Shown here in pieces: positions 1,429 to 23,960 of a stretch of DNA of 34,613 nt (position 1 is the first letter of the stretch; every line of letters begins with the position of its first letter). Made by a program: the position numbers and the translations under genes. The notes below the pieces were generated by a model. That model made no database searches, was not told where the DNA came from, and worked only from the letters and a program-made list of their open reading frames with translations. This stretch comes from a virus (taxonomy: Duplodnaviria > Caudoviricetes). The stretch lies in IMG/VR virus record IMGVR_UViG_3300020045_010131, positions 1 to 34,613 of that record, one strand, 5' to 3'.

Positions 1429-1674
1429 TTACACCCCTTGAAGATGGTTGTTTCTTTGTTCAAGTAGTTCTGTTTCGTCAATGGTGGAGATTGGCGCAAA
1501 TAATATTTTCCTAAACGATTGAGGTCTGCCGTTAAGAGTTTTTAAATACTCTGCTATTTCGTAGCAATCGCCCCATTTTGAACATTGAGATGCTGTAACA
1601 ATCTCTCCATAAACGGGAGTATTATTATATATATCGGGAGATTGAAACCTGTCATCAATGCACATTACTTTCAT
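1429..1674 (-). CDS. Hypothetical phage protein (MKVMCID-type N-terminus)
   Basis: 81-aa ORF in the operon. Confidence 0.7.
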   Translation of the reverse strand: MKVMCIDDRFQSPDIYNNTPVYGEIVTASQCSKWGDCYEIAEYLKTLNGRPQSFRKILFAPISTIDETELLEQRNNHLQGV

Positions 1675-4870: not shown

Positions 4871-5107
4871 ATGGAAATCGGAAAAAGTATTGATGCAGCC
4901 TTTGAGGAGTTTATGAAAACAAGTGATTTTAAACAGATTGCTGCAAGAAAAGATAGCGAAGGTGGGAAATTCAGGATGCTAAAAACCAGATACAAAAGAA
5001 AAAAACTTGACTGGCTTGCCATGCTTAATGTTTTAGTGATGTACGGCTATGAGATTGAACTAAAAAGAACAAGTAGAGGGTGGGCGGAAGAAAGGGGTAA
5101 TATTTAA
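4871..5107 (+). CDS. Hypothetical protein (possible DNA-binding)
   Basis: 78-aa basic ORF. Confidence 0.65.
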   Translation: MEIGKSIDAAFEEFMKTSDFKQIAARKDSEGGKFRMLKTRYKRKKLDWLAMLNVLVMYGYEIELKRTSRGWAEERGNI

Positions 5108-11081: not shown

Positions 11082-12953
11082 TTAAAATGGTAATTCTGTA
11101 GATTCTAAATTATCGTTTTCTTTGTACGGTTTCCAATTTTGTTGTGGCGGTACTATTGCCGGTGCTGTTTCAAAAGAAATATCTCTTTTATTAAGCTGCG
11201 CTCTCAATGGGTCAATTGTATTAAAAACAAATCTCCTAATATTGAAATTCATTTCAAATAAGAAAAATCCTTTTTTACCTACTGTTTTTTGTCTGCGTAT
11301 TTTTTTACTATGAAATTCGCAAGTAGGGTTAGGGGGGTCTGATTGAGCGAAAGGTCTATGGTAAACTAAAATATTATCCATTTTGTTATTCCACATAGCG
11401 CCATCGTTAACATCAAACACATCAGGGCATTCATAGTTACCATCACCTCCTTTTTTCATTAACTTAGGATGAGCTATTATCCAAAAATAAACATCATTCA
11501 TTTGAGCAAACCTACCGAATATGGATAGTACCCATTCAAGATATTTATCAGTCCTACCTGACTTACCATAATCATTTGTCATTTGGTTAAATGGGTCAAT
11601 ATCAACACCATCAATTTTCTCCTTAATTATCAACTCTAAAAATATTTCCATTACATACGTTGGCGTAGGTTCTACATCTTTGGGGTAAACATAAAAAATA
11701 TGCTTTGAAACCCAATCATAAACGTATTCATAAGTCTGTCTTGAAGGTCTATTAGGATTAGCAGGGGTGCAATCACAGCCTAAAAGTATTTCAACATAAT
11801 CATGGTAGTATTCTTCTGGTGGGTTATCTTCCGGCGAAAAGGATGCAAATTTTTCCCCGTACATAAGCACTCTCATACAATGATACCATTTTTTAAAAGA
11901 AGATTTACCGTAGTTACCTATACCAGTAAGCAATGTTATCTCGCCTCTTTTGGGTTTAAAATGATAATCAAGCTCTGGTATAGAAAGTCCATCAACCCTG
12001 TTGTATCCGTTATCGTACAAATCCATTGCTTTATCCTTAACATCAACTCCGTAAATAACATCCTTCGGTCTAATCCCTTCGTCAAAAATTGTTGGGTCAA
12101 GTTTTATTTCTTGTCTTGTAACCCTATCAACTAAAATTTCTTTTTCAAATGATGCACTACCATATCTGGCTGAATTAGCCTTATAAGCACTCCTAATTGT
12201 TCGTTCAGCCTCTTTACTTGAAAACTGTGAGTTAACTAAAAATTCAACCCCTATAAAGTGTACACATGACATTTCGTTTATACCGAACTTGCAGCAAGCA
12301 GATGCTAATTTAAAAATAAAATTATTGCGCTCTCCGGTAACAAACGCTTCGTTTTTATTTGAAAGCCAAACTACAAGTTTTTTAAAAATATCTTCTTCAT
12401 CAAGATTTACCTGTTGTTTTTCGTAAACTTTTTCCGTCTTTTTTATTTTACCAAATACCTTAGATTCTTTGTTGATGTATATTTCAGGGTCGTAGCTTTC
12501 ATAGCAAACTCTCGATTCATTTTTACCGCTATCGTCACAAGTAGGGAAAACTTCTTTTAAAGCAGCAAAATGTTCCCTATGCTTTCCCCCATCTGCTATT
12601 TTTATGAGTATTTTTAACCCATTACCAGAGGGGCTAACCCAGCAGGAATAAACAATATCTTTGCTTATTATTTCTGTTTGAGCATCCCTTAAATTCTCAA
12701 TATTGTCTAAATCCAAAACAATAAAACCGCTATGCTTAGTTAAACAATTATCCTTCCTTTCTTTTGTAAATGTTCCACTAAACAATACAGCCGGTAGGTT
12801 TGATTTCAAAGATTGCCTTTTTTCCTTATCAATAGTTGTTCGGATTTCTTCGCACAGGGCTTTACTGTTACCTTTGGCTATACGGTCTAATGCCTTATCA
12901 ACCTCTATGTAAAAAGGCTCTTTTGAGTAAATATTTTTAAAAACAGTAATCAT
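11082..12953 (-). CDS. Primase-helicase (BT4734/VirE-N-like primase domain, PriCT, SF4 helicase)
   Basis: KSNLPAVLFSGTF, HSGFIVLDLD, SPSGNGLK, GERNN, Walker A TGIGNYGKS, IDPFN, IAHPK. Confidence 0.88.
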   Translation of the reverse strand: MITVFKNIYSKEPFYIEVDKALDRIAKGNSKALCEEIRTTIDKEKRQSLKSNLPAVLFSGTFTKERKDNCLTKHSGFIVLDLDNIENLRDAQTEIISKDIVYSCWVSPSGNGLKILIKIADGGKHREHFAALKEVFPTCDDSGKNESRVCYESYDPEIYINKESKVFGKIKKTEKVYEKQQVNLDEEDIFKKLVVWLSNKNEAFVTGERNNFIFKLASACCKFGINEMSCVHFIGVEFLVNSQFSSKEAERTIRSAYKANSARYGSASFEKEILVDRVTRQEIKLDPTIFDEGIRPKDVIYGVDVKDKAMDLYDNGYNRVDGLSIPELDYHFKPKRGEITLLTGIGNYGKSSFKKWYHCMRVLMYGEKFASFSPEDNPPEEYYHDYVEILLGCDCTPANPNRPSRQTYEYVYDWVSKHIFYVYPKDVEPTPTYVMEIFLELIIKEKIDGVDIDPFNQMTNDYGKSGRTDKYLEWVLSIFGRFAQMNDVYFWIIAHPKLMKKGGDGNYECPDVFDVNDGAMWNNKMDNILVYHRPFAQSDPPNPTCEFHSKKIRRQKTVGKKGFFLFEMNFNIRRFVFNTIDPLRAQLNKRDISFETAPAIVPPQQNWKPYKENDNLESTELPF

Positions 12954-13717
12954 GCAGTTCTTTTTTTAGCAGCCTCTCTTTGTTGAAGTAAATTCTTTTG
13001 ATAATCGGACATTTCAAACTTAACGGGCGATGTACCTTTTTTCTTGTACCAATGATACCAATGTCTTTTTAATTCTTTCAAATCTTTAAAATCATCTTTT
13101 ATTTCAAGTTCTTTCAAAAACTCATTCATTTGAACAAGCAACAAAGCCTTAGTTAATCCAAATTCCGTACACTGTTTCATTTGCCATTGCTCCGATATTA
13201 AGAATTGCCTTTTTTCGCTTTCCCATGTTCCATTGTCCAAAATTTCAACAATCGGCTGTATTAATTCTATTTCTTCTTTACTTTCTAATTCTTCTTTTAT
13301 ATGTTCAATTGGCGTTCTATCATTGTTCAATTGCTGTTCAATTGCTGTTCTATTGCTGTTCAATTGCTGTTCACTGTTATCCTTTTTAGATTGATAAGTA
13401 TCATAATTACAAACAGTTACGATTGAAAAAGTGCTGTTCACATCTATTTTTATTTGACCTAAATCCTCAAATTTTTGCATTTGCCTATAAATCGTAGAAC
13501 CAGATATAGAAAGTTCTTCTTCAGCTTTAATCCTGCCAAATATAAATTGCCCCCTTTCAACTTTAATTGAACTTACTCCTAATCCAACCTTTAAAGGCAC
13601 AAAAGAAGCCTTGTAATTAGCCTTTAAAAGCATCCATACCCATATCTTTAATGAAACCGGATTAGCAAAAGCATAGCTATCTAAAATACCACGGTGAATC
13701 TTAATCCAGTCTGACAT
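12950..13717 (-). CDS. Phage replication initiator (lambda O / replisome-organizer-like)
   Basis: MSDWIKIHR...LLKAN...RGQF...TVCNYDTYQ N-terminus; internal repeats; adjacent to the helicase. Confidence 0.8.
   Translation of the reverse strand: MSDWIKIHRGILDSYAFANPVSLKIWVWMLLKANYKASFVPLKVGLGVSSIKVERGQFIFGRIKAEEELSISGSTIYRQMQKFEDLGQIKIDVNSTFSIVTVCNYDTYQSKKDNSEQQLNSNRTAIEQQLNNDRTPIEHIKEELESKEEIELIQPIVEILDNGTWESEKRQFLISEQWQMKQCTEFGLTKALLLVQMNEFLKELEIKDDFKDLKELKRHWYHWYKKKGTSPVKFEMSDYQKNLLQQREAAKKRTA
13302..13372. repeat. 11-bp tandem iterons (TGTTC[A/T]ATTGC, about 6.5 copies), putative replication origin
   Basis: Units start at 13302, 13313, 13324, 13335, 13346, 13357 and 13368, inside the initiator gene. 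Confidence 0.8.
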
Positions 13718-13736: not shown

Positions 13737-13866
13737 GGCTTAACCCCGTTGCCGTTGCAAAACAAGTTATCTCCCTGTGAAGGTAGAAAACAAAGCAACA
13801 GGGTTAAGCCCGTTATAAAAAATTAAATGTATGTTGTAATTGAAATCATTGGATAACTTGTTTTGC
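13737..13866 (-). promoter_or_regulatory. Structured 5' leader with interleaved inverted repeats
   Basis: 13737-13746 pairs with 13801-13810; 13757-13771 pairs perfectly (15 bp) with 13852-13866. Confidence 0.7.
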
Positions 13867-14356: not shown

Positions 14357-14374
14357 TAGTTATTTGTTTTTGTA

Positions 14375-14553
14375 TCTTTTTTATCTATGTGCTTGAAAAG
14401 TGATGGGATCGAACCAAAAGGCGACTTTCGTCTTTTCTACAACCATTATCTTTAAGATGAAGGGAATCGAACCCTTGACACTTCCACAGTGACCGCTGAG
14501 TCGAACAGCGTACCTACCAATTGTTAAATTTCAAGACACATAGATAAAAAAGA
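14375..14553 (-). ncRNA. Structured RNA A: 24-bp closing stem enclosing three T-loop (TTCGA) hairpins
   Basis: 14375-14398 pairs with 14529-14553 (one bulge). Inside are CGCTG-TTCGACT-CAGCG, AAGGG-TTCGATT-CCCTT, TGG-TTCGATC-CCA and a GAC-GAAA-GTC hairpin. Confidence 0.75.
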
Positions 14554-14567
14554 ACTGTTTTTTAAAA

Positions 14568-14748
14568 TTGATTGAAGTACTGTGTGGCTATTTTCCTATG
14601 ACTACTCTGCATCCGGCGTGGTATGGGGTACAACTTATTTCACCAAAAACCCACCTTCGACCACTCAATTGTTATCCTGTTGTTTTTCTCCTTAGCTTTC
14701 GAGTAAATAGCTGCATTTTTCATTGGACACACAGTACATTTCAATCAA
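14568..14748 (-). ncRNA. Structured RNA D: 19-bp closing stem plus inner GCTATTT/AAATAGC stem
   Basis: 14568-14586 pairs with 14728-14748 (2-nt bulge). Confidence 0.6.
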
Positions 14749-14782
14749 AGTATGCTTGAACAAAGTTTAAAAATATAAAATA

Positions 14783-14884
14783 CAGTAGTTGGATGTACTG
14801 GTTCACCTATGGATTTTCCAGTCGTTATTACCCACATCCCAATGACAAAGAGGATTAGGAAAAACCAATACACCCATACTACTG
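14783..14884 (-). ncRNA. Structured RNA E: long irregular hairpin
   Basis: Nested pairs CAGTAGT/ACTACTG, TGGGTGTA/TACATCCA, TGGTT/AACCA, CCTA/TAGG. Confidence 0.5.
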
Positions 14885-14900
14885 GTAAAATAAAACCATC

Positions 14901-14998
14901 TGGACGATATGGCGGAATCGAACCTGACCACCTCCTGCCCCGATAGGTCAATTAAACCTATCGGGCAAGTGTTACTACCTAATTAAACTAATATCGTC
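14901..14998 (-). ncRNA. tRNA-like RNA B with an extended anticodon arm
   Basis: Acceptor GACGATAT/ATATCGTC ending ...CCA; D-region TAGTTTAATTAGGTAGTAAC; T-loop GG-TTCGATT-CC; anticodon arm replaced by a ~15-bp hairpin. Confidence 0.7.
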
Positions 14999-15034
14999 AA
15001 TTTAAAACATTAAGTACAATACAAAGAACTAAAA

Positions 15035-15238
15035 TACTGGCTGTCCATTTCTAAGTGGAGTAAAAATCCATACGCTCTTACCTCTGAGCTACATCTTCAT
15101 CAGACGGCACTTTTCGATTGTTGCGACCTTATGGGTATCTTACCTTACAATAAACAAACGCACTCTTAGCAGTGCTGCACATCTTATACTCTTTTATTGA
15201 GCAAATTCCACTGTGCTGTTTATCTTCAGCAGCCAATA
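15035..15238 (-). ncRNA. Structured RNA C: multi-hairpin RNA containing a tRNA D-arm plus anticodon-arm module
   Basis: Closing stem TATTGGCTG/CAGCCAGTA; internal hairpins; GTAGCTCAGAGGTAAGAGCG followed by TGGA-TTTTTAC-TCCA. Confidence 0.6.
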
Positions 15239-15290: not shown

Positions 15291-15623
15291 CTATTTAAAT
15301 AATTCAGGTTGAACAAATGATGATTTAGGGGGAACTAATTCTTTACCTTGATTACTTTGCTCTGCTACATACTCCCTCATTTTTGCTATTCCTTCTTTAT
15401 TATGCTCTGTTACATTAAGGCGATAGTTAGTCCACGTAACGCTCTGCCCGTATCTTGATTTACCTTCCATGTGAGTACGGCTTACTACCACGCCAAATCC
15501 TTTTTCTATCATCCTGCTAATTTCTCTTGGGCAGTTGGTAAGCCCTATAAGGTCAAAACAGTTCTTTATATTTAGAACCCTTCCATCAAGTAAGGCTTTG
15601 GCTAAAGCGGCTTTGGCTGTCAT
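15291..15623 (-). CDS. Winged-HTH protein
   Basis: LLDGRVLNIKNCFDLIGLTNCPREISR...TNYRL phage wHTH pattern; ends QPELFK. Confidence 0.75.
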   Translation of the reverse strand: MTAKAALAKALLDGRVLNIKNCFDLIGLTNCPREISRMIEKGFGVVVSRTHMEGKSRYGQSVTWTNYRLNVTEHNKEGIAKMREYVAEQSNQGKELVPPKSSFVQPELFK

Positions 15624-15644: not shown

Positions 15645-15676
15645 CAAGATTAGAACAAAGATTTGAATTATGCAAA
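15645..15676 (-). promoter_or_regulatory. Leftward promoter of the divergent control region
   Basis: TTTG-N20-TAATCTTG. Confidence 0.6.
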
Positions 15677-15742
15677 TTTATTTAGAGAAATTTAAAAAAA
15701 TAAAAAAGATAAGAATTATTAGGATTATTGAAAAAAAGGTTT

Positions 15743-16296: not shown

Positions 16297-16455
16297 ATGC
16301 TCAACGAACAAGCCATAGAGTTATTAACCCGAATGAGAAACCTTCTGCTTACCTCTACCATAAGAAAGCCATACGGGTATAAAAACATTTGGGAGTGGAG
16401 AAAATCAATGCAAGAAAAAATTAAGTACATAAAACAAAAAGAAAAGATACAATGA
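16297..16455 (+). CDS. Hypothetical protein (52 aa)
   Basis: Open frame MLNEQAIELL...; its TGA overlaps the ATG of the GroES-like gene. Confidence 0.6.
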   Translation: MLNEQAIELLTRMRNLLLTSTIRKPYGYKNIWEWRKSMQEKIKYIKQKEKIQ

Positions 16456-16736
16456 TAAAACTAAAGCCACAAGGCGTAAAATTAATTATCCATCCTATTG
16501 AAAAGGAAAACTTTAAAACAGAAGGGGGGCTTGAAATAGTTCAGATGGACTTACAGGAAGGAGAGGTAATGGAAGTACCTGATGAACTAAAAGATATTTA
16601 TGCTGTAGGTGATATTGTTCTGTATCCAAAAGGAGCAGGATTAGGTGTAATGTACCAAAAGAAAAGTTGTGTATTTTTAAGTGGAGAAGGAAATAACAAA
16701 GGCGATATTATTGCACTTATAACTGATGAAAAATAA
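16452..16736 (+). CDS. GroES-like co-chaperonin
   Basis: LKPQG.KLII...KTEGGL...GEVMEV...VGDIVLY...DIIA matches the Cpn10 pattern. Confidence 0.85.
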   Translation: MIKLKPQGVKLIIHPIEKENFKTEGGLEIVQMDLQEGEVMEVPDELKDIYAVGDIVLYPKGAGLGVMYQKKSCVFLSGEGNNKGDIIALITDEK

Positions 16737-17449
16737 TGAATAATCCAGCAAAAATTTTAGTAAAGTACACTACAAGAGGAAGGGTTGACCGTTTTTTTGA
16801 TGGCATGGAAAGCATTTATAACAATTGTGCTGACTTAGATAATTTAAGAGTTTTAATAACTGCCGACTTAGATGATGTAACTATGAATTGCGAGGCGGTT
16901 AAAATAAGGCTTTTAAATTACAAAAATGCTAAAATAATCTATGGTACAAGTACGGGGAAAATAAATGCAATAAACCGTGATTTTGATAAGCTGCCAAATG
17001 GATTTGAAGATTGGGATATAATTGCCAATTTTAGCGATGACCAGCGGTTTACGATATTTGGTTGGGATGAATTAATACGGACGGATTTTAAGCTAAATTC
17101 GCCTGATTACACTCACTTCATGGCATACTTAGATGTTGACACAAAAGGGGCTTTGAGTACTCTTTATATTGCTGGACGCAAATTCTTTGATTTGTTTGGG
17201 TTTGTTTATGACAATGTGTTTTTAAGTCTGTTTGCAGATAACCTTGTTGAAGATTGCGCCAAACATTTAAACCTATTCCACTATACCGGATATACAATTT
17301 ATCAGCATCTTCTACCAAGCTATGGGCATTTACAGGGAGATGAAATGTGGCAAAAGCAACAGGAAGTTGGGTACAGCATAGATATGACTACATACCACGA
17401 TATAATTAATAAAGGGATTCCGGAATATTTAAAACAATTTGGATTATGA
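16736..17449 (+). CDS. Glycosyltransferase (GT-A / GT2-like)
   Basis: ILVKYTTRGR, KINAINRD, DIIANFSDD (DxD-like), FADN, YQH. Confidence 0.8.
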   Translation: MNNPAKILVKYTTRGRVDRFFDGMESIYNNCADLDNLRVLITADLDDVTMNCEAVKIRLLNYKNAKIIYGTSTGKINAINRDFDKLPNGFEDWDIIANFSDDQRFTIFGWDELIRTDFKLNSPDYTHFMAYLDVDTKGALSTLYIAGRKFFDLFGFVYDNVFLSLFADNLVEDCAKHLNLFHYTGYTIYQHLLPSYGHLQGDEMWQKQQEVGYSIDMTTYHDIINKGIPEYLKQFGL

Positions 17450-18303
17450 TAATTGATTTTTCCATGTACGCTTTTAAAAAAAGAGCTGCTTATGTAAAAA
17501 ATGTTTTATCCCAAAGTCAACCAGAGTTGGACTTTAAGGCACTTGAATACATGTCCCTTAAAAAGGGAGACTATAATTCAGCTATTTATGGGATATATAA
17601 TATTATTACGAAAAATTTATACGTAGGGTCTACAAATAATTTTCATAAAAGGTTTGTTGGGCATCAGAATTGTTTACGTACTGGCAAGACTTATAGGTCA
17701 ATACTAAGCGACCTTAACAAAACGGGATTCGATAGTTTCTTTTTTATAAAAATAATGGATGTAGAGCCTAAACAACTGATTGAGGCTGAAAATTATTGGA
17801 TAGAATCATTGGGGGCGACTTATAATAGCAATAAGGCGGTGGAATTAAAGATACCAATAGAGAGCAAAAGGAGAGCAAGGGTTGATGGGATAAAAACTAT
17901 GGCACATTATAGTTCCCCTGTAGTAAAGTATGATTTTTCTGGAGAAGTTTTGAGTGAATATACAAGCATAAGAGCGGCAGCAGTTGAGCATGGGGGTAAG
18001 CATTTAGCATATCTTATAACTAAAAACTGTAGAGGTAAAACAGATTCAGCTTTTGGGGCAGTGTGGAAGTATAAGAATGGAATGACATTACCTAAGCCAA
18101 AACATGTAAAGCAATTGGTTCAAAAGGCAATTGTTCAAATAGATGCAGAAACAGGGGAATTTATAAAAATGTGGGAATCCTCAATTCAGGCAGCAGAGTT
18201 TTACGGGCTTAAGCCGCAATCAATACGGTATGTATGCGAAAGTAAGAAAAAAGCTGCGGGATATTTATGGAGGTATGCAAACTTGAAAAACTTTAGATTA
18301 TGA
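17446..18303 (+). mobile_element. Free-standing GIY-YIG homing endonuclease with NUMOD1 repeats
   Basis: GIYNI...YVGST...RF..H; ENYWI; two SIRAAA / SSIQAAEF...GYLWRY repeats. Confidence 0.85.
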
Positions 18304-18989
18304 TACAACAGCCATTACTTAGTATATTGATACCTACTGTTGTAGGAAGAGAAGCGGAAGTCGAAAGGCTTTTGAATAAAGTAAAAGGCGGCTTAGCATG
18401 GAAAGAGGTTAAGATTATTGATGGTAAATATGAAAGACACATTGGGGAGTGTTTAAGTATGCCTATATGGTTTGAAATATATAAGGATGACAAGTCGGTA
18501 ACTATTGGAGAGAAAAGAGAAACAATGTATAAAGGGGCAAAAGGACTTTATTCTTGGCAAATTGATGATGACGATGATATAGCGGATAATGCAATACAGC
18601 TAATATTAGAGGCTATTAAAAGCAATCCTGAAATACCCTGTATAACTTTTCGTGAACGGTGCATGATGAATGGGGAATACAAAACATCCAATCATTCGAT
18701 TAAGTATGATTGTTGGAGGGACAATTGGGATGGCTATAGTTACACAAGAAACCCCTTTTTTAAGGATGTGATAAGGACAGATATAGCAAAGTCAGTTCCG
18801 ATACATAATGTAAGGTGGAATGAGGATGAATTATTCTCCAAAGATATTTACCCACTCCTTACCGATGAAATACACATAGACAAAGAACTATACTTTTACA
18901 TTTACGAACCTAAAGACACACACGAAGAACGTTACGGCATAATCCAACCAGCACAAAGAAAAGAAAACAGCGAACCTACTAATTATTGA
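18300..18989 (+). CDS. Glycosyltransferase family 2-like
   Basis: LLSILIPTV.GR, IGEKR, IDDDDDI, NED, YFY. Confidence 0.85.
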   Translation: MIQQPLLSILIPTVVGREAEVERLLNKVKGGLAWKEVKIIDGKYERHIGECLSMPIWFEIYKDDKSVTIGEKRETMYKGAKGLYSWQIDDDDDIADNAIQLILEAIKSNPEIPCITFRERCMMNGEYKTSNHSIKYDCWRDNWDGYSYTRNPFFKDVIRTDIAKSVPIHNVRWNEDELFSKDIYPLLTDEIHIDKELYFYIYEPKDTHEERYGIIQPAQRKENSEPTNY

Positions 18990-20632: not shown

Positions 20633-21430
20633 ATGATTTCTGTACTTTCAGCGACCGGCAATGAATTTTATTCATACCCACTACCGATAACGGTTTGGAG
20701 TTGGTATAAATTGGGGATTAAAAGCATTGTGTTTGTTCCCGAAAATAGTGGGGCTAAAATAGCATTGGCAAAAGAATATTGCAATGGGATGGCTGATTTT
20801 TATACTTTTAAATGCGAAGAAAGAAAAGAGGCTACTTTTGCACAAACAAGTCGATTATTTGGTGCTACAGTTGAAGGGTTAGATGATAATGAGGTGCTGA
20901 TTACGGGAGACGCTGATTTAGCTGTATTTGGTAGCGAATTTGAGCAGTTTAAAGATGGGAAGGTTCGGATAATTGGAGCTGACTTATTAAGTGAAGATAT
21001 GAACCAGTTCCCGATGTGCTTTATCGGCATGTCTGTTAGTAATTGGAAAGATATATTCGCCATTGGTAGTGATAATTTGCAATCCGCTTTGGATGATACA
21101 GTAGGCAATTTGGAATCAATATCGTTTCGTGGGGATTTTTGGGGGTACGATCAATGGTACGCTCACCAAGTGATAACAAGAAGCGGTGTGGATATTTTAA
21201 AAATACCACGGGCAAAACCGCCGGAAATGTTTGCCGTAAGGCGTTATGACCGTGATGACCAATTTATATTAGACAGGCTAAACCCCGATACCATTGACTT
21301 CCACATGCCCCGCCCCGGATATGAAGAAAAAAGTCACCATATAATAATGACCATATTAAAATACCACTACCCAAATGAAGATTTTACATGGGTTGACCAG
21401 TACAGAAATGAATACTTAAAACTATTATAA
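20633..21430 (+). CDS. Putative glycosyltransferase (GT-A-like)
   Basis: LITGDADL (DxD), PMCFI, WGYDQ, DFHMPRP. Confidence 0.65.
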   Translation: MISVLSATGNEFYSYPLPITVWSWYKLGIKSIVFVPENSGAKIALAKEYCNGMADFYTFKCEERKEATFAQTSRLFGATVEGLDDNEVLITGDADLAVFGSEFEQFKDGKVRIIGADLLSEDMNQFPMCFIGMSVSNWKDIFAIGSDNLQSALDDTVGNLESISFRGDFWGYDQWYAHQVITRSGVDILKIPRAKPPEMFAVRRYDRDDQFILDRLNPDTIDFHMPRPGYEEKSHHIIMTILKYHYPNEDFTWVDQYRNEYLKLL

Positions 21431-23024: not shown

Positions 23025-23353
23025 CACCTTATATTACTTATAGAGAAAAAGACGATAATGGGGATTTGCAGTACTATATATTGCAAAAGGCTTTCCCTCA
23101 CATGGTAGGCAGATTAGTTACTTTTCCAATAGAAGGAGCGTTGGCTAATGAAGCTATTGCAGGGTACAATCTTTGGATAACATGGAATGGTTGTTTGAGG
23201 GGTAATGTAATCCCTAATTATACGAATTTTGATAAAGAAATAGCCAATGTATTTTTCAATATGTCGGCATGGTTTTATGCCGAAAGGATTGTGATGGATA
23301 AAAGCAGATTTAAAAAATTTAAAATAAATACAGATGCTAACAGCCCCGCTTGA
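23021..23353 (+). CDS. Hypothetical protein
   Basis: ATGA-coupled ORF. Confidence 0.7.
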   Translation: MTPYITYREKDDNGDLQYYILQKAFPHMVGRLVTFPIEGALANEAIAGYNLWITWNGCLRGNVIPNYTNFDKEIANVFFNMSAWFYAERIVMDKSRFKKFKINTDANSPA

Positions 23354-23960
23354 TGATGTGATAGTTAAGGTTAAAACCAAGTACATCTCAAATATTACAA
23401 CTCTTTTAAAGCGTTCTGCCATACAGAACAATGCCAGCGTTGACCCTTTAGATTTCGTTAATATTACGGGAGAGATAGTTTCAATTCCAAAAGCAATAAC
23501 CAAAAGATTTGATTACGAAGGCTACAGTTTGGAGCATATCAAAGTAGGAGATATTGCAATCTTTTCTTACCATGTAATTGGAGAGCAATGGATAACAGAA
23601 GACCAAAAGATAGAGTTTAAAAACAGAATATGGTATGATGGGCAAGAGTATTTCAGATGCAATATCATGGACTTGTTTGGGGTTATAAGAGATGGCAAAG
23701 TAATTATGTTGAATGGGTATGTAATGGCAACGCCTTTCCCCGAAAGCAAGATTATAGTAGCCGCCTCAATGAAAAAAACAAAAGGTGTTGTAAAATCCGA
23801 AGTAATGAATATCGGCTACCCAAAATCAAATAAAAAGTGCATAGATGCAATGCAGGGAGATACCATACTTTTCAATCCAATGGTTGCCCAAAAGTACCAA
23901 ATAAACGATAAGCCATTTATAATCCTATCCCAGCACCATATCATGGCAAAAGAGGCTTAA
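23334..23960 (+). CDS. Tandem double GroES-like domain protein
   Basis: Two repeats: GEIVSIP...IKVGDIAIF...GQEYF and EVMNIG...QGDTILF...INDKPFIIL. Confidence 0.75.
   Translation: MLTAPLDDVIVKVKTKYISNITTLLKRSAIQNNASVDPLDFVNITGEIVSIPKAITKRFDYEGYSLEHIKVGDIAIFSYHVIGEQWITEDQKIEFKNRIWYDGQEYFRCNIMDLFGVIRDGKVIMLNGYVMATPFPESKIIVAASMKKTKGVVKSEVMNIGYPKSNKKCIDAMQGDTILFNPMVAQKYQINDKPFIILSQHHIMAKEA

Follow-up and report, generated by a model that had tools for sequence, protein, structure and literature searches.

On the minus strand of a virus record from IMG/VR (IMGVR_UViG_3300020045_010131), analysed here as one window over its whole length of 34,613 nt, positions 14998→14901 specify a tRNA-shaped RNA, termed module B, whose anticodon arm is predicted to be replaced by one long closed hairpin. 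Our preferred but tentative reading is that module B is a non-decoding mimic of the top half of a tRNA and acts as a decoy; the lead of this reading over a decayed tRNA and over a punctuation signal is small. Established at the level of sequence are the anatomy of the predicted RNA, its acceptor end of the His type and the lack of an anticodon at the distance needed for decoding, along with its place in a variable slot among four other predicted folds.

The source is likely a tailed phage with a host from the Bacteroidota, judged by its protein matches. The 1046-aa virion protein matched 74 records, all of them Flavobacterium or Cellulophaga phages, at ~27% identity, and the primase/helicase matched 129 records by tblastn, mostly phages of Flavobacterium/Cellulophaga hosts.

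Anatomy of module B

Every sequence quoted in an earlier, sequence-only reading of 14901..14998 is present; that reading left the strand unstated, and the feature lies on the minus strand. Module B scores 31.7 bits against the Rfam tRNA family RF00005 (cut-off 29), with E values of 0.006 for the whole window and 0.00019 for the region, and ARAGORN calls no tRNA. The minus-strand fold is predicted at -37.8 kcal/mol (z -4.34), a stability reached by 0 of 200 shuffles, and in a constrained cloverleaf 31 of 31 pairs are standard (28 Watson-Crick and 3 G·U), distributed as 8 pairs in the acceptor stem, 3 in the D stem, 15 in the anticodon arm and 5 in the T stem. Core bases are kept (U8, A14, A15/U48, G18, G19, G53, U54, U55, C56, A58, U60 and C61), the variable loop comprises 4 nt, and the sole pair-breaking substitution in the helices is the common 13-22 mismatch.

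The acceptor stem (5' strand 14991..14998 including G-1 at 14998; 3' strand 14903..14910) had been described as an 8-bp helix, and indeed all 8 pairs are Watson-Crick, with pairing probabilities of 0.73-1.0. The 3' strand ends in C73 (14903), a discriminator of the His type, and is followed by C-A. The 3' CCA claimed before is not a free one, since it begins with C73, which pairs with G-1; positions 74-76 read C-A-G. The D arm (14971..14988) has a 3-pair stem, A14 and A15, and the GG noted before in the form of G18 and G19; it is 1 base longer than its counterpart in normal tRNAs, and its loop lacking the extra U is found in normal tRNA-Lys and tRNA-Trp (L137, L139, L142). The T arm (14911..14929) carries, as first read, a UUCGAUU loop on an imperfect stem, which in the Rfam alignment consists of 5 pairs with a 2-nt CA bulge.

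The extended anticodon arm occupies 14934..14969 and was correctly recognised as an almost perfectly paired hairpin of about 15 bp: it is made of 14 pairs plus a closing U·G and contains one bulged G, with pairing probabilities of 0.5-1.0 and a z value of -5.76 for the fold of the arm by itself. Perfect hairpins of at least 9 bp with a loop of at most 10 nt occur only twice in the 34.6-kb window, and the arm of module B is one of them. The tip loop (14949-14955, UUAAUUG) is partly canonical: U32 and U33 are kept, and the label non-canonical applies to U37, which is not a purine. An origin of the insert by self-duplication of the D arm (an 8-nt repeat) was considered and set aside as weak, as 160 and 643 of 20,000 shuffles reach the score in what was a post hoc test.

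A contig from a public run (X2) spans 14871-15021 and thus the whole of module B with 3 other letters in 151, so that an assembly artefact is unlikely. The only one of these differences that is listed falls at 14953 inside the tip loop, and this single variant is too little to be taken as a sign of selection. It changes the tip-loop triplet AAU to UAU, both of which are Ile anticodons, probably by coincidence.

Decoding and splicing

The 5-bp anticodon stem with a 7-nt loop bearing U33 and a purine at 37, placed at the normal distance, is absent from module B. Decoding is predicted to be impossible from tRNA geometry, because position 37 is a U and the tip loop lies ~10 pairs too far from the elbow. 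It had been proposed before that the RNA is unlikely to decode and retains the acceptor and elbow face; the intact core bases agree with this, as do single deletions of 18-20 nt, of which 0 of 56 gave a product with a 5-pair stem and a U33 loop and 3 of 56 placed U33 on a 4-pair stem.

Such deletions also bear on the proposal that module B is an intron-containing tRNA of the Lak-phage type, in which loss of a 19-nt insert would give back a tRNA able to decode, with GAU as one possible anticodon. Introns in tRNAs are reported for Lak phages (PMC6784885), among the fetched sequences L016 (1494-1598, plus strand) is a phage tRNA-Ile(GAU) that carries 31 inserted nt at 37/38, and the insert region of module B would, with its initial 7 nt, put GAU at 34-36 and A at 37. 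However, 19-nt excisions on the native stem leave 8 possible loops, none of which has U33, a base present in 554 of 561 comparison tRNAs; the excision products are thus non-canonical, and Lak-type introns are an unlikely model for module B. In addition, the bulge-helix-bulge motif as commonly defined is absent, since the arm contains a single 1-nt bulge only, C73 conflicts with an Ile identity (A73 in 100 of 101 Ile tRNAs), and no excision yields GUG. We therefore consider splicing to a decoding tRNA very improbable.

Two further classes of tRNA-like RNA were rejected. The tRNA-like domain of tmRNA has G3·U70, A73, no D stem and a tag reading frame. Module B has G3-C70, C73 and a D stem, and no tmRNA match was obtained on it. 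Allo-tRNAs and selC* tRNA-Cys combine an 8/4 or 9/3 fold and a long variable arm with a normal anticodon loop (PMC7609411); module B has a 4-nt variable loop and no anticodon loop. For Y RNA (YrlA), no Rfam match was found up to E 10 and no TROVE family among the 53 of 85 ORFs scanned, in a record that may be a fragment.

An acceptor end of the tRNA-His type

The eighth acceptor pair of module B is a G-1:C73 pair added to the normal 7 bp, as Rfam puts position 1 at 14997. For comparison with this end, ARAGORN called 642 distinct tRNA genes in the fetched loci; 568 of them allowed numbering (8 His and 560 others), in a set biased by the patterns used for fetching (101 Ile). C73 is present in 8 of 8 His tRNAs and in 2 of the 560 others, and the complete G-1:C73 pair in 5 of 8 His tRNAs and in none of the 560 others. 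Module B thus shares with bacterial tRNA-His (RF00005) the encoded G-1 paired to C73 and the cloverleaf core. It differs from it in the 15-pair arm, in the bulged T-stem and in the lack of a GUG anticodon, which is absent from the arm and from every excision product. Its body also shows no preference for His over other isotypes, the best His score being 32 and the highest of all 39, for a Thr, so C73 could be a product of chance.

HisRS charges mini- and microhelices that bear G-1:C73 (PMC9976931, PMC4357726), and because this pair suffices on such helices, module B may be charged as well. For selection of His in vivo the anticodon contributes too, as described in PMC9976931. A genome-encoded G-1 is retained through processing by RNase P (PMC10100707).

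Genomic setting and the RNA block

Module B sits in 1.1 kb that contain no convincing gene and are flanked by a 110-aa ORF (15291..15623) upstream, which is kept in relatives and served as an anchor, and by the genes of a DnaD-like replication protein (12950-13717) and a primase/helicase (11082-12953) downstream, all on the minus strand. Both of these genes were assigned by PHROGs, by Pfam and by tblastn to Flavobacterium and Cellulophaga phages; the 110-aa protein has no family match in Pfam or PHROG. An ORF of 68 aa (14745-14951) overlapping module B has no Pfam or PHROG family and was taken as a chance ORF. ARAGORN calls no normal tRNA gene in the window, and relaxed settings produced only noise.

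TAnnTTTG is a promoter motif of Bacteroidota. It is not enriched in the window (43 found, 55.9 expected), and a sigma-70 promoter scan showed no excess; one TAnnTTTG copy on the minus strand at 15673-15680 is no more than a lead. Just upstream of the replication gene, 13737-13866 contains two strong inverted repeats (16 and 15 bp), one with a terminator-like U tract on the minus strand; the repeats are 82% conserved in the closest relative. The window also holds two GroES-like (Cpn10) genes (16452-16736 and 23334-23960) and glycosyltransferase-like genes (16736-17449 and 18300-18989).

Four further folds are predicted on the minus strand of the gene-free stretch, with boundaries picked after inspection: module A (15035..15238), a stem-closed multibranch RNA (z -3.20); module C (14783..14884), a long hairpin directly downstream of module B (z -3.61); module D (14568..14748), a multibranch RNA with a long closing stem (z -2.67, with 1 of 200 shuffles as stable); and module E (14372..14555), closed by a perfect 17-bp stem with 17 of 17 pairs (z -4.88). 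None of the four has an Rfam family. A contig of run X1 covers most of module C and differs from it in 1 letter. At 15029-15098 (minus strand), module A shows a tRNA D arm and an anticodon arm of the UUU type and no T arm, and it scores 16.7 bits (E 2.5) against the Rfam tRNA family, below the cut-off; a hammerhead in module A was ruled out by inspection and Rfam. Module E contains three T-loop motifs (GUUCGA) at 14506, 14472 and 14414, as well as AAUUGGUAG, which resembles a D-loop, and a small hairpin whose loop reads UGUGGAA; an exact-match pattern for the triple T-loop gave 0 matches in viral contigs. All four occurrences of GTTCGA.YC in the window fall within 510 nt on the minus strand, in modules B and E, and shuffled windows contain 1.1 on average over their whole length.

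The sequence-only reading had proposed, next to a decoy, a processing signal of the mascRNA type. In eukaryotes, mascRNA and menRNA as well as the tRNA punctuation of mitochondria place a tRNA shape that RNase P and RNase Z can cut within a longer transcript; these shapes are shorter than a tRNA and have reduced arms, whereas the arm of module B is enlarged. By analogy, cutting by host RNase P and 3' processing at both ends of module B would release modules A and C and mature the mRNA of the replication genes, and module B itself would be a by-product. The position of module B between two folded modules, at gaps of 36 nt to module A and 16 nt to module C, fits this proposal. Against it, modules C and D as well as D and E are parted by AU-rich linkers without a tRNA shape, a 15-pair arm is needless for a cutting mark, and the weak T-stem described below would make a poor signal for RNase P. 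The slot also lacks a tRNA-shaped element in the closest relative and in Maribacter phage Panino. Taken together, we judge a processing signal to be unlikely and place it behind decay in our ranking.

Relatives and homologue searches

The anchor protein is 97% identical in the closest relative (L001) and 61-74% identical in five other contigs. In the closest relative, the same slot contains an ORF of 196 aa and a different stem-closed RNA (4955-5090, z -3.75), which has one exact and one T-loop-like motif and is unrelated to module B; merely a 27-nt piece of the block is shared (window 14742-14768). Normal tRNAs at this place in relatives were the finding against which the sequence-only reading had asked to be held; the closest relative has a different cassette there and no normal tRNA. 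In the five more distant relatives with the anchor gene, no tRNA-like RNA was found near the anchor, and the Rfam tRNA model, run on six whole relative records, returned nothing in five and two weak matches below the cut-off in one. As its contents differ among relatives, the slot is variable and the block accessory.

Exact-match patterns, which do not prove absence, retrieved no diverged homologue of module B from viral, metagenome, genome or phage collections. In viral contigs, a pattern combining D-loop and T-loop and an acceptor pattern gave 0 matches each, and a T-arm pattern gave 1 match, a chance one within a coding region. The 8 pattern matches in metagenome contigs were 3 normal tRNAs and 5 sequences without an acceptor stem; among genome contigs, 0 of 224 candidates had the anchor protein, and the RNA pattern gave 0 matches. 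A blastn search of 50,697 phage records yielded no match to module B except one of 34 nt with E 0.09. Since no diverged homologue was found, covariation does not testify to selection on module B, and the hairpin may be a recent insertion.

With a broad pattern, 106 of the 120 matches listed were tRNAs with a UAU anticodon loop and a long variable arm; L017-L135 form a large phage tRNA family of this kind, frequently bearing an AGAU loop. A single-hairpin filter, applied to 415 distinct tRNA-shaped elements from 146 sequences, kept 18, and inspection by eye divided them into 4 class I bodies with a long arm (module B, L041, L075 and L016) and 14 normal tRNAs with long variable arms. Long or sealed anticodon arms were seen in the unrelated phage tRNA shapes L041 (match 1501-1571, minus strand), L075 (from 2392, plus strand) and L094 (from ~1494, plus strand).

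The T-stem, the missing CCA and the case for decay

Two features of module B depart from a sound tRNA. Its T-stem has 2 contiguous pairs followed by the 2-nt bulge, whereas 545 of the 568 comparison tRNAs have 5 of 5 pairs; the canonical register has a pairing probability of 0.01, and the nearest-neighbour model, which ignores tertiary contacts, favours by 4 kcal/mol a slipped register whose loop has 12 nt. A poor T-stem implies a weaker elbow, a part on which both RNase P and the CCA enzyme depend. Moreover, module B does not encode CCA, in contrast to 520 of the 568 comparison tRNAs.

The bulged T-stem and the missing CCA keep alive the explanation that module B is a functionless relic, i.e. 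a captured tRNA gene whose anticodon loop received a fold-back insertion and whose D and T arms were disrupted by small insertions. Such an event would agree with the top 9 pairs of the arm, whose perfect inverted repeat is the kind of product expected from template switching, with the further incomplete tRNA piece in module A, with the absence of the module B RNA from the closest relative and with the failure of the searches to find a diverged homologue. A gene in decay is, however, not expected to retain an acceptor stem with 8 of 8 Watson-Crick pairs and its core bases, and the modules around it are closed by long stems that pair almost perfectly (17 of 17 pairs in module E). Module B departs from a tRNA by changes in length and not by pair-breaking substitutions, which appears unlike neutral decay. 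We therefore regard decay as rather unlikely, while ranking it first among the competing explanations.

A putative decoy

The decoy reading is ranked above decay because the helices contain no pair-breaking substitutions apart from the common 13-22 mismatch, and above punctuation because no tRNA shape separates the other modules from one another and further parts of a tRNA are seen in three RNAs predicted for this slot. The RNA block would be transcribed leftward together with the 110-aa gene. Host RNase P would then cut before G-1 as it does in tRNA-His, and after 3' trimming the host CCA enzyme would complete the CCA end, upon which host HisRS may charge the RNA. Lacking a readable anticodon, module B would have no function on the ribosome and would instead offer its acceptor end and elbow as a surplus substrate to host proteins, most plausibly to defence toxins that modify tRNA ends. 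Some defence toxins are known to inspect the acceptor stem and to modify CCA at the 3' end (10.1101/2024.07.05.602228). The tRNA parts in the neighbouring modules and the phage RNAs of like design described below also count for a decoy; against it count the poor T-stem, the missing CCA, the body without a preference for His, the five anchor-bearing relatives in which no such RNA was found near the anchor and the searches that returned no diverged homologue. If the decoy reading is true, the locus would represent a protein-free counter-defence against tRNA-targeting immunity.

A wider version of the decoy reading, to which we give little credence, extends it to the whole 1.1-kb block, which would be an RNA-only anti-defence cassette that soaks up tRNA-targeting toxins or sensors of the host and whose modules are swapped by Bacteroidota phages upstream of their replication genes. 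Within such a cassette, and as a speculation of the same low standing, each module would display another face of a tRNA: module B a histidylatable acceptor and elbow, module A an anticodon arm of the UUU type and module E three T-loops.

Similar RNAs in other phages

In the literature searched, with older work on T4 and T5 stable RNAs outside its scope, we found no description of a phage tRNA-like RNA with an extended anticodon hairpin. The closest counterparts in design are RNA1 and RNA2 of phage T5, annotated in record AY543070 as 'tRNA-like stable RNA with unknown functions'. A comparison of the folds shows that, like module B, they keep the D arm, T arm and acceptor of a tRNA body and carry a long closed arm where the anticodon arm should be. 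Their neighbours RNAI, RNAIII, RNAIV and RNA2H, of 100-170 nt, have long closing stems in the manner of modules A, C, D and E, and RNAIII, RNAIV and RNA2H fold as stem-closed multibranch RNAs. The arms of the T5 RNAs are branched and longer, whereas that of module B is a simple hairpin. RNA1 and RNA2 further have extra variable arms and perfect T-stems and lie in a large tRNA cluster, in contrast to the class I body and His-type end of module B and to a window without a normal tRNA. No sequence match connects the two. Module B is therefore a case of the T5 RNA1/RNA2 design and no member of that group by sequence or location. In T5, RNA1 abuts RNAI and RNAIII abuts tRNA-His with zero gap, an arrangement that speaks for a processing signal.

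T4 RNAC and RNAD (species 1 and species 2) are stable phage RNAs for which the sources give no role (PMC3014915, PMC9697503). The T4 rnaC sequence ends in a T arm and has long hairpins; it differs from module B in having no clear D arm, in its length of 139 nt and in the lack of a sequence match. To this unexplained T4/T5 stable-RNA design the present locus adds a variant with a His-type end and a simple hairpin.

tRNA-shaped RNAs without a normal anticodon arm were present in all three of the annotated distant relatives checked. The Flavobacterium elemo phages carry in a slot upstream of replication-protein and primase genes either of two unrelated sequences: an anticodon-less RNA capped by GCAA in 4 of 68 records (L180, 1996-2071), or a tRNA-Met(CAU), found in 3 of 3 inspected among the other 64 records (L181-L183, 1532-1605). 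The RNA of elemoA_7-9A (MT497017, 10495-10570), annotated as 'tRNA-Ala' and read as anticodon-less by the present analysis, resembles module B in its class I body, its sealed anticodon arm and its position on the same strand upstream of replication and primase genes. It differs in its unrelated sequence, 8-bp arm, GCAA tetraloop and G73, and is a single RNA rather than part of a cluster; the two slots are analogous by gene order alone, as the replication proteins have no tblastn match to each other. That tRNA-Met and the anticodon-less RNA are interchangeable in one slot is what a processing signal would lead one to expect if only the shape matters. In Maribacter phage Panino, no tRNA-shaped element was found in the slot. 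The elemo phages, cultured on one host, constitute a ready test system, in which a comparison of the slot alleles would directly reveal the role that a tRNA shape without decoding plays in a phage.

The recurrence of the same design in unrelated phages (L041, L075, T5, elemoA and MW202828) argues against decay. In MW202828 (L179), two unannotated tRNA-shaped RNAs stand in tandem at 523-630 and 637-697, one with a long anticodon arm and one without an anticodon arm. Phage phi38:1 has at 20678-20817 on the minus strand (L184, 4679-4818) a tRNA-shaped RNA of 140 nt with an arm bearing a 9-nt loop and a variable arm of great length; 7 Cellulophaga phage records share it at 95-100% identity. Immediately downstream of it comes gp030, linked in the record to PF01139, the RtcB RNA ligase family.
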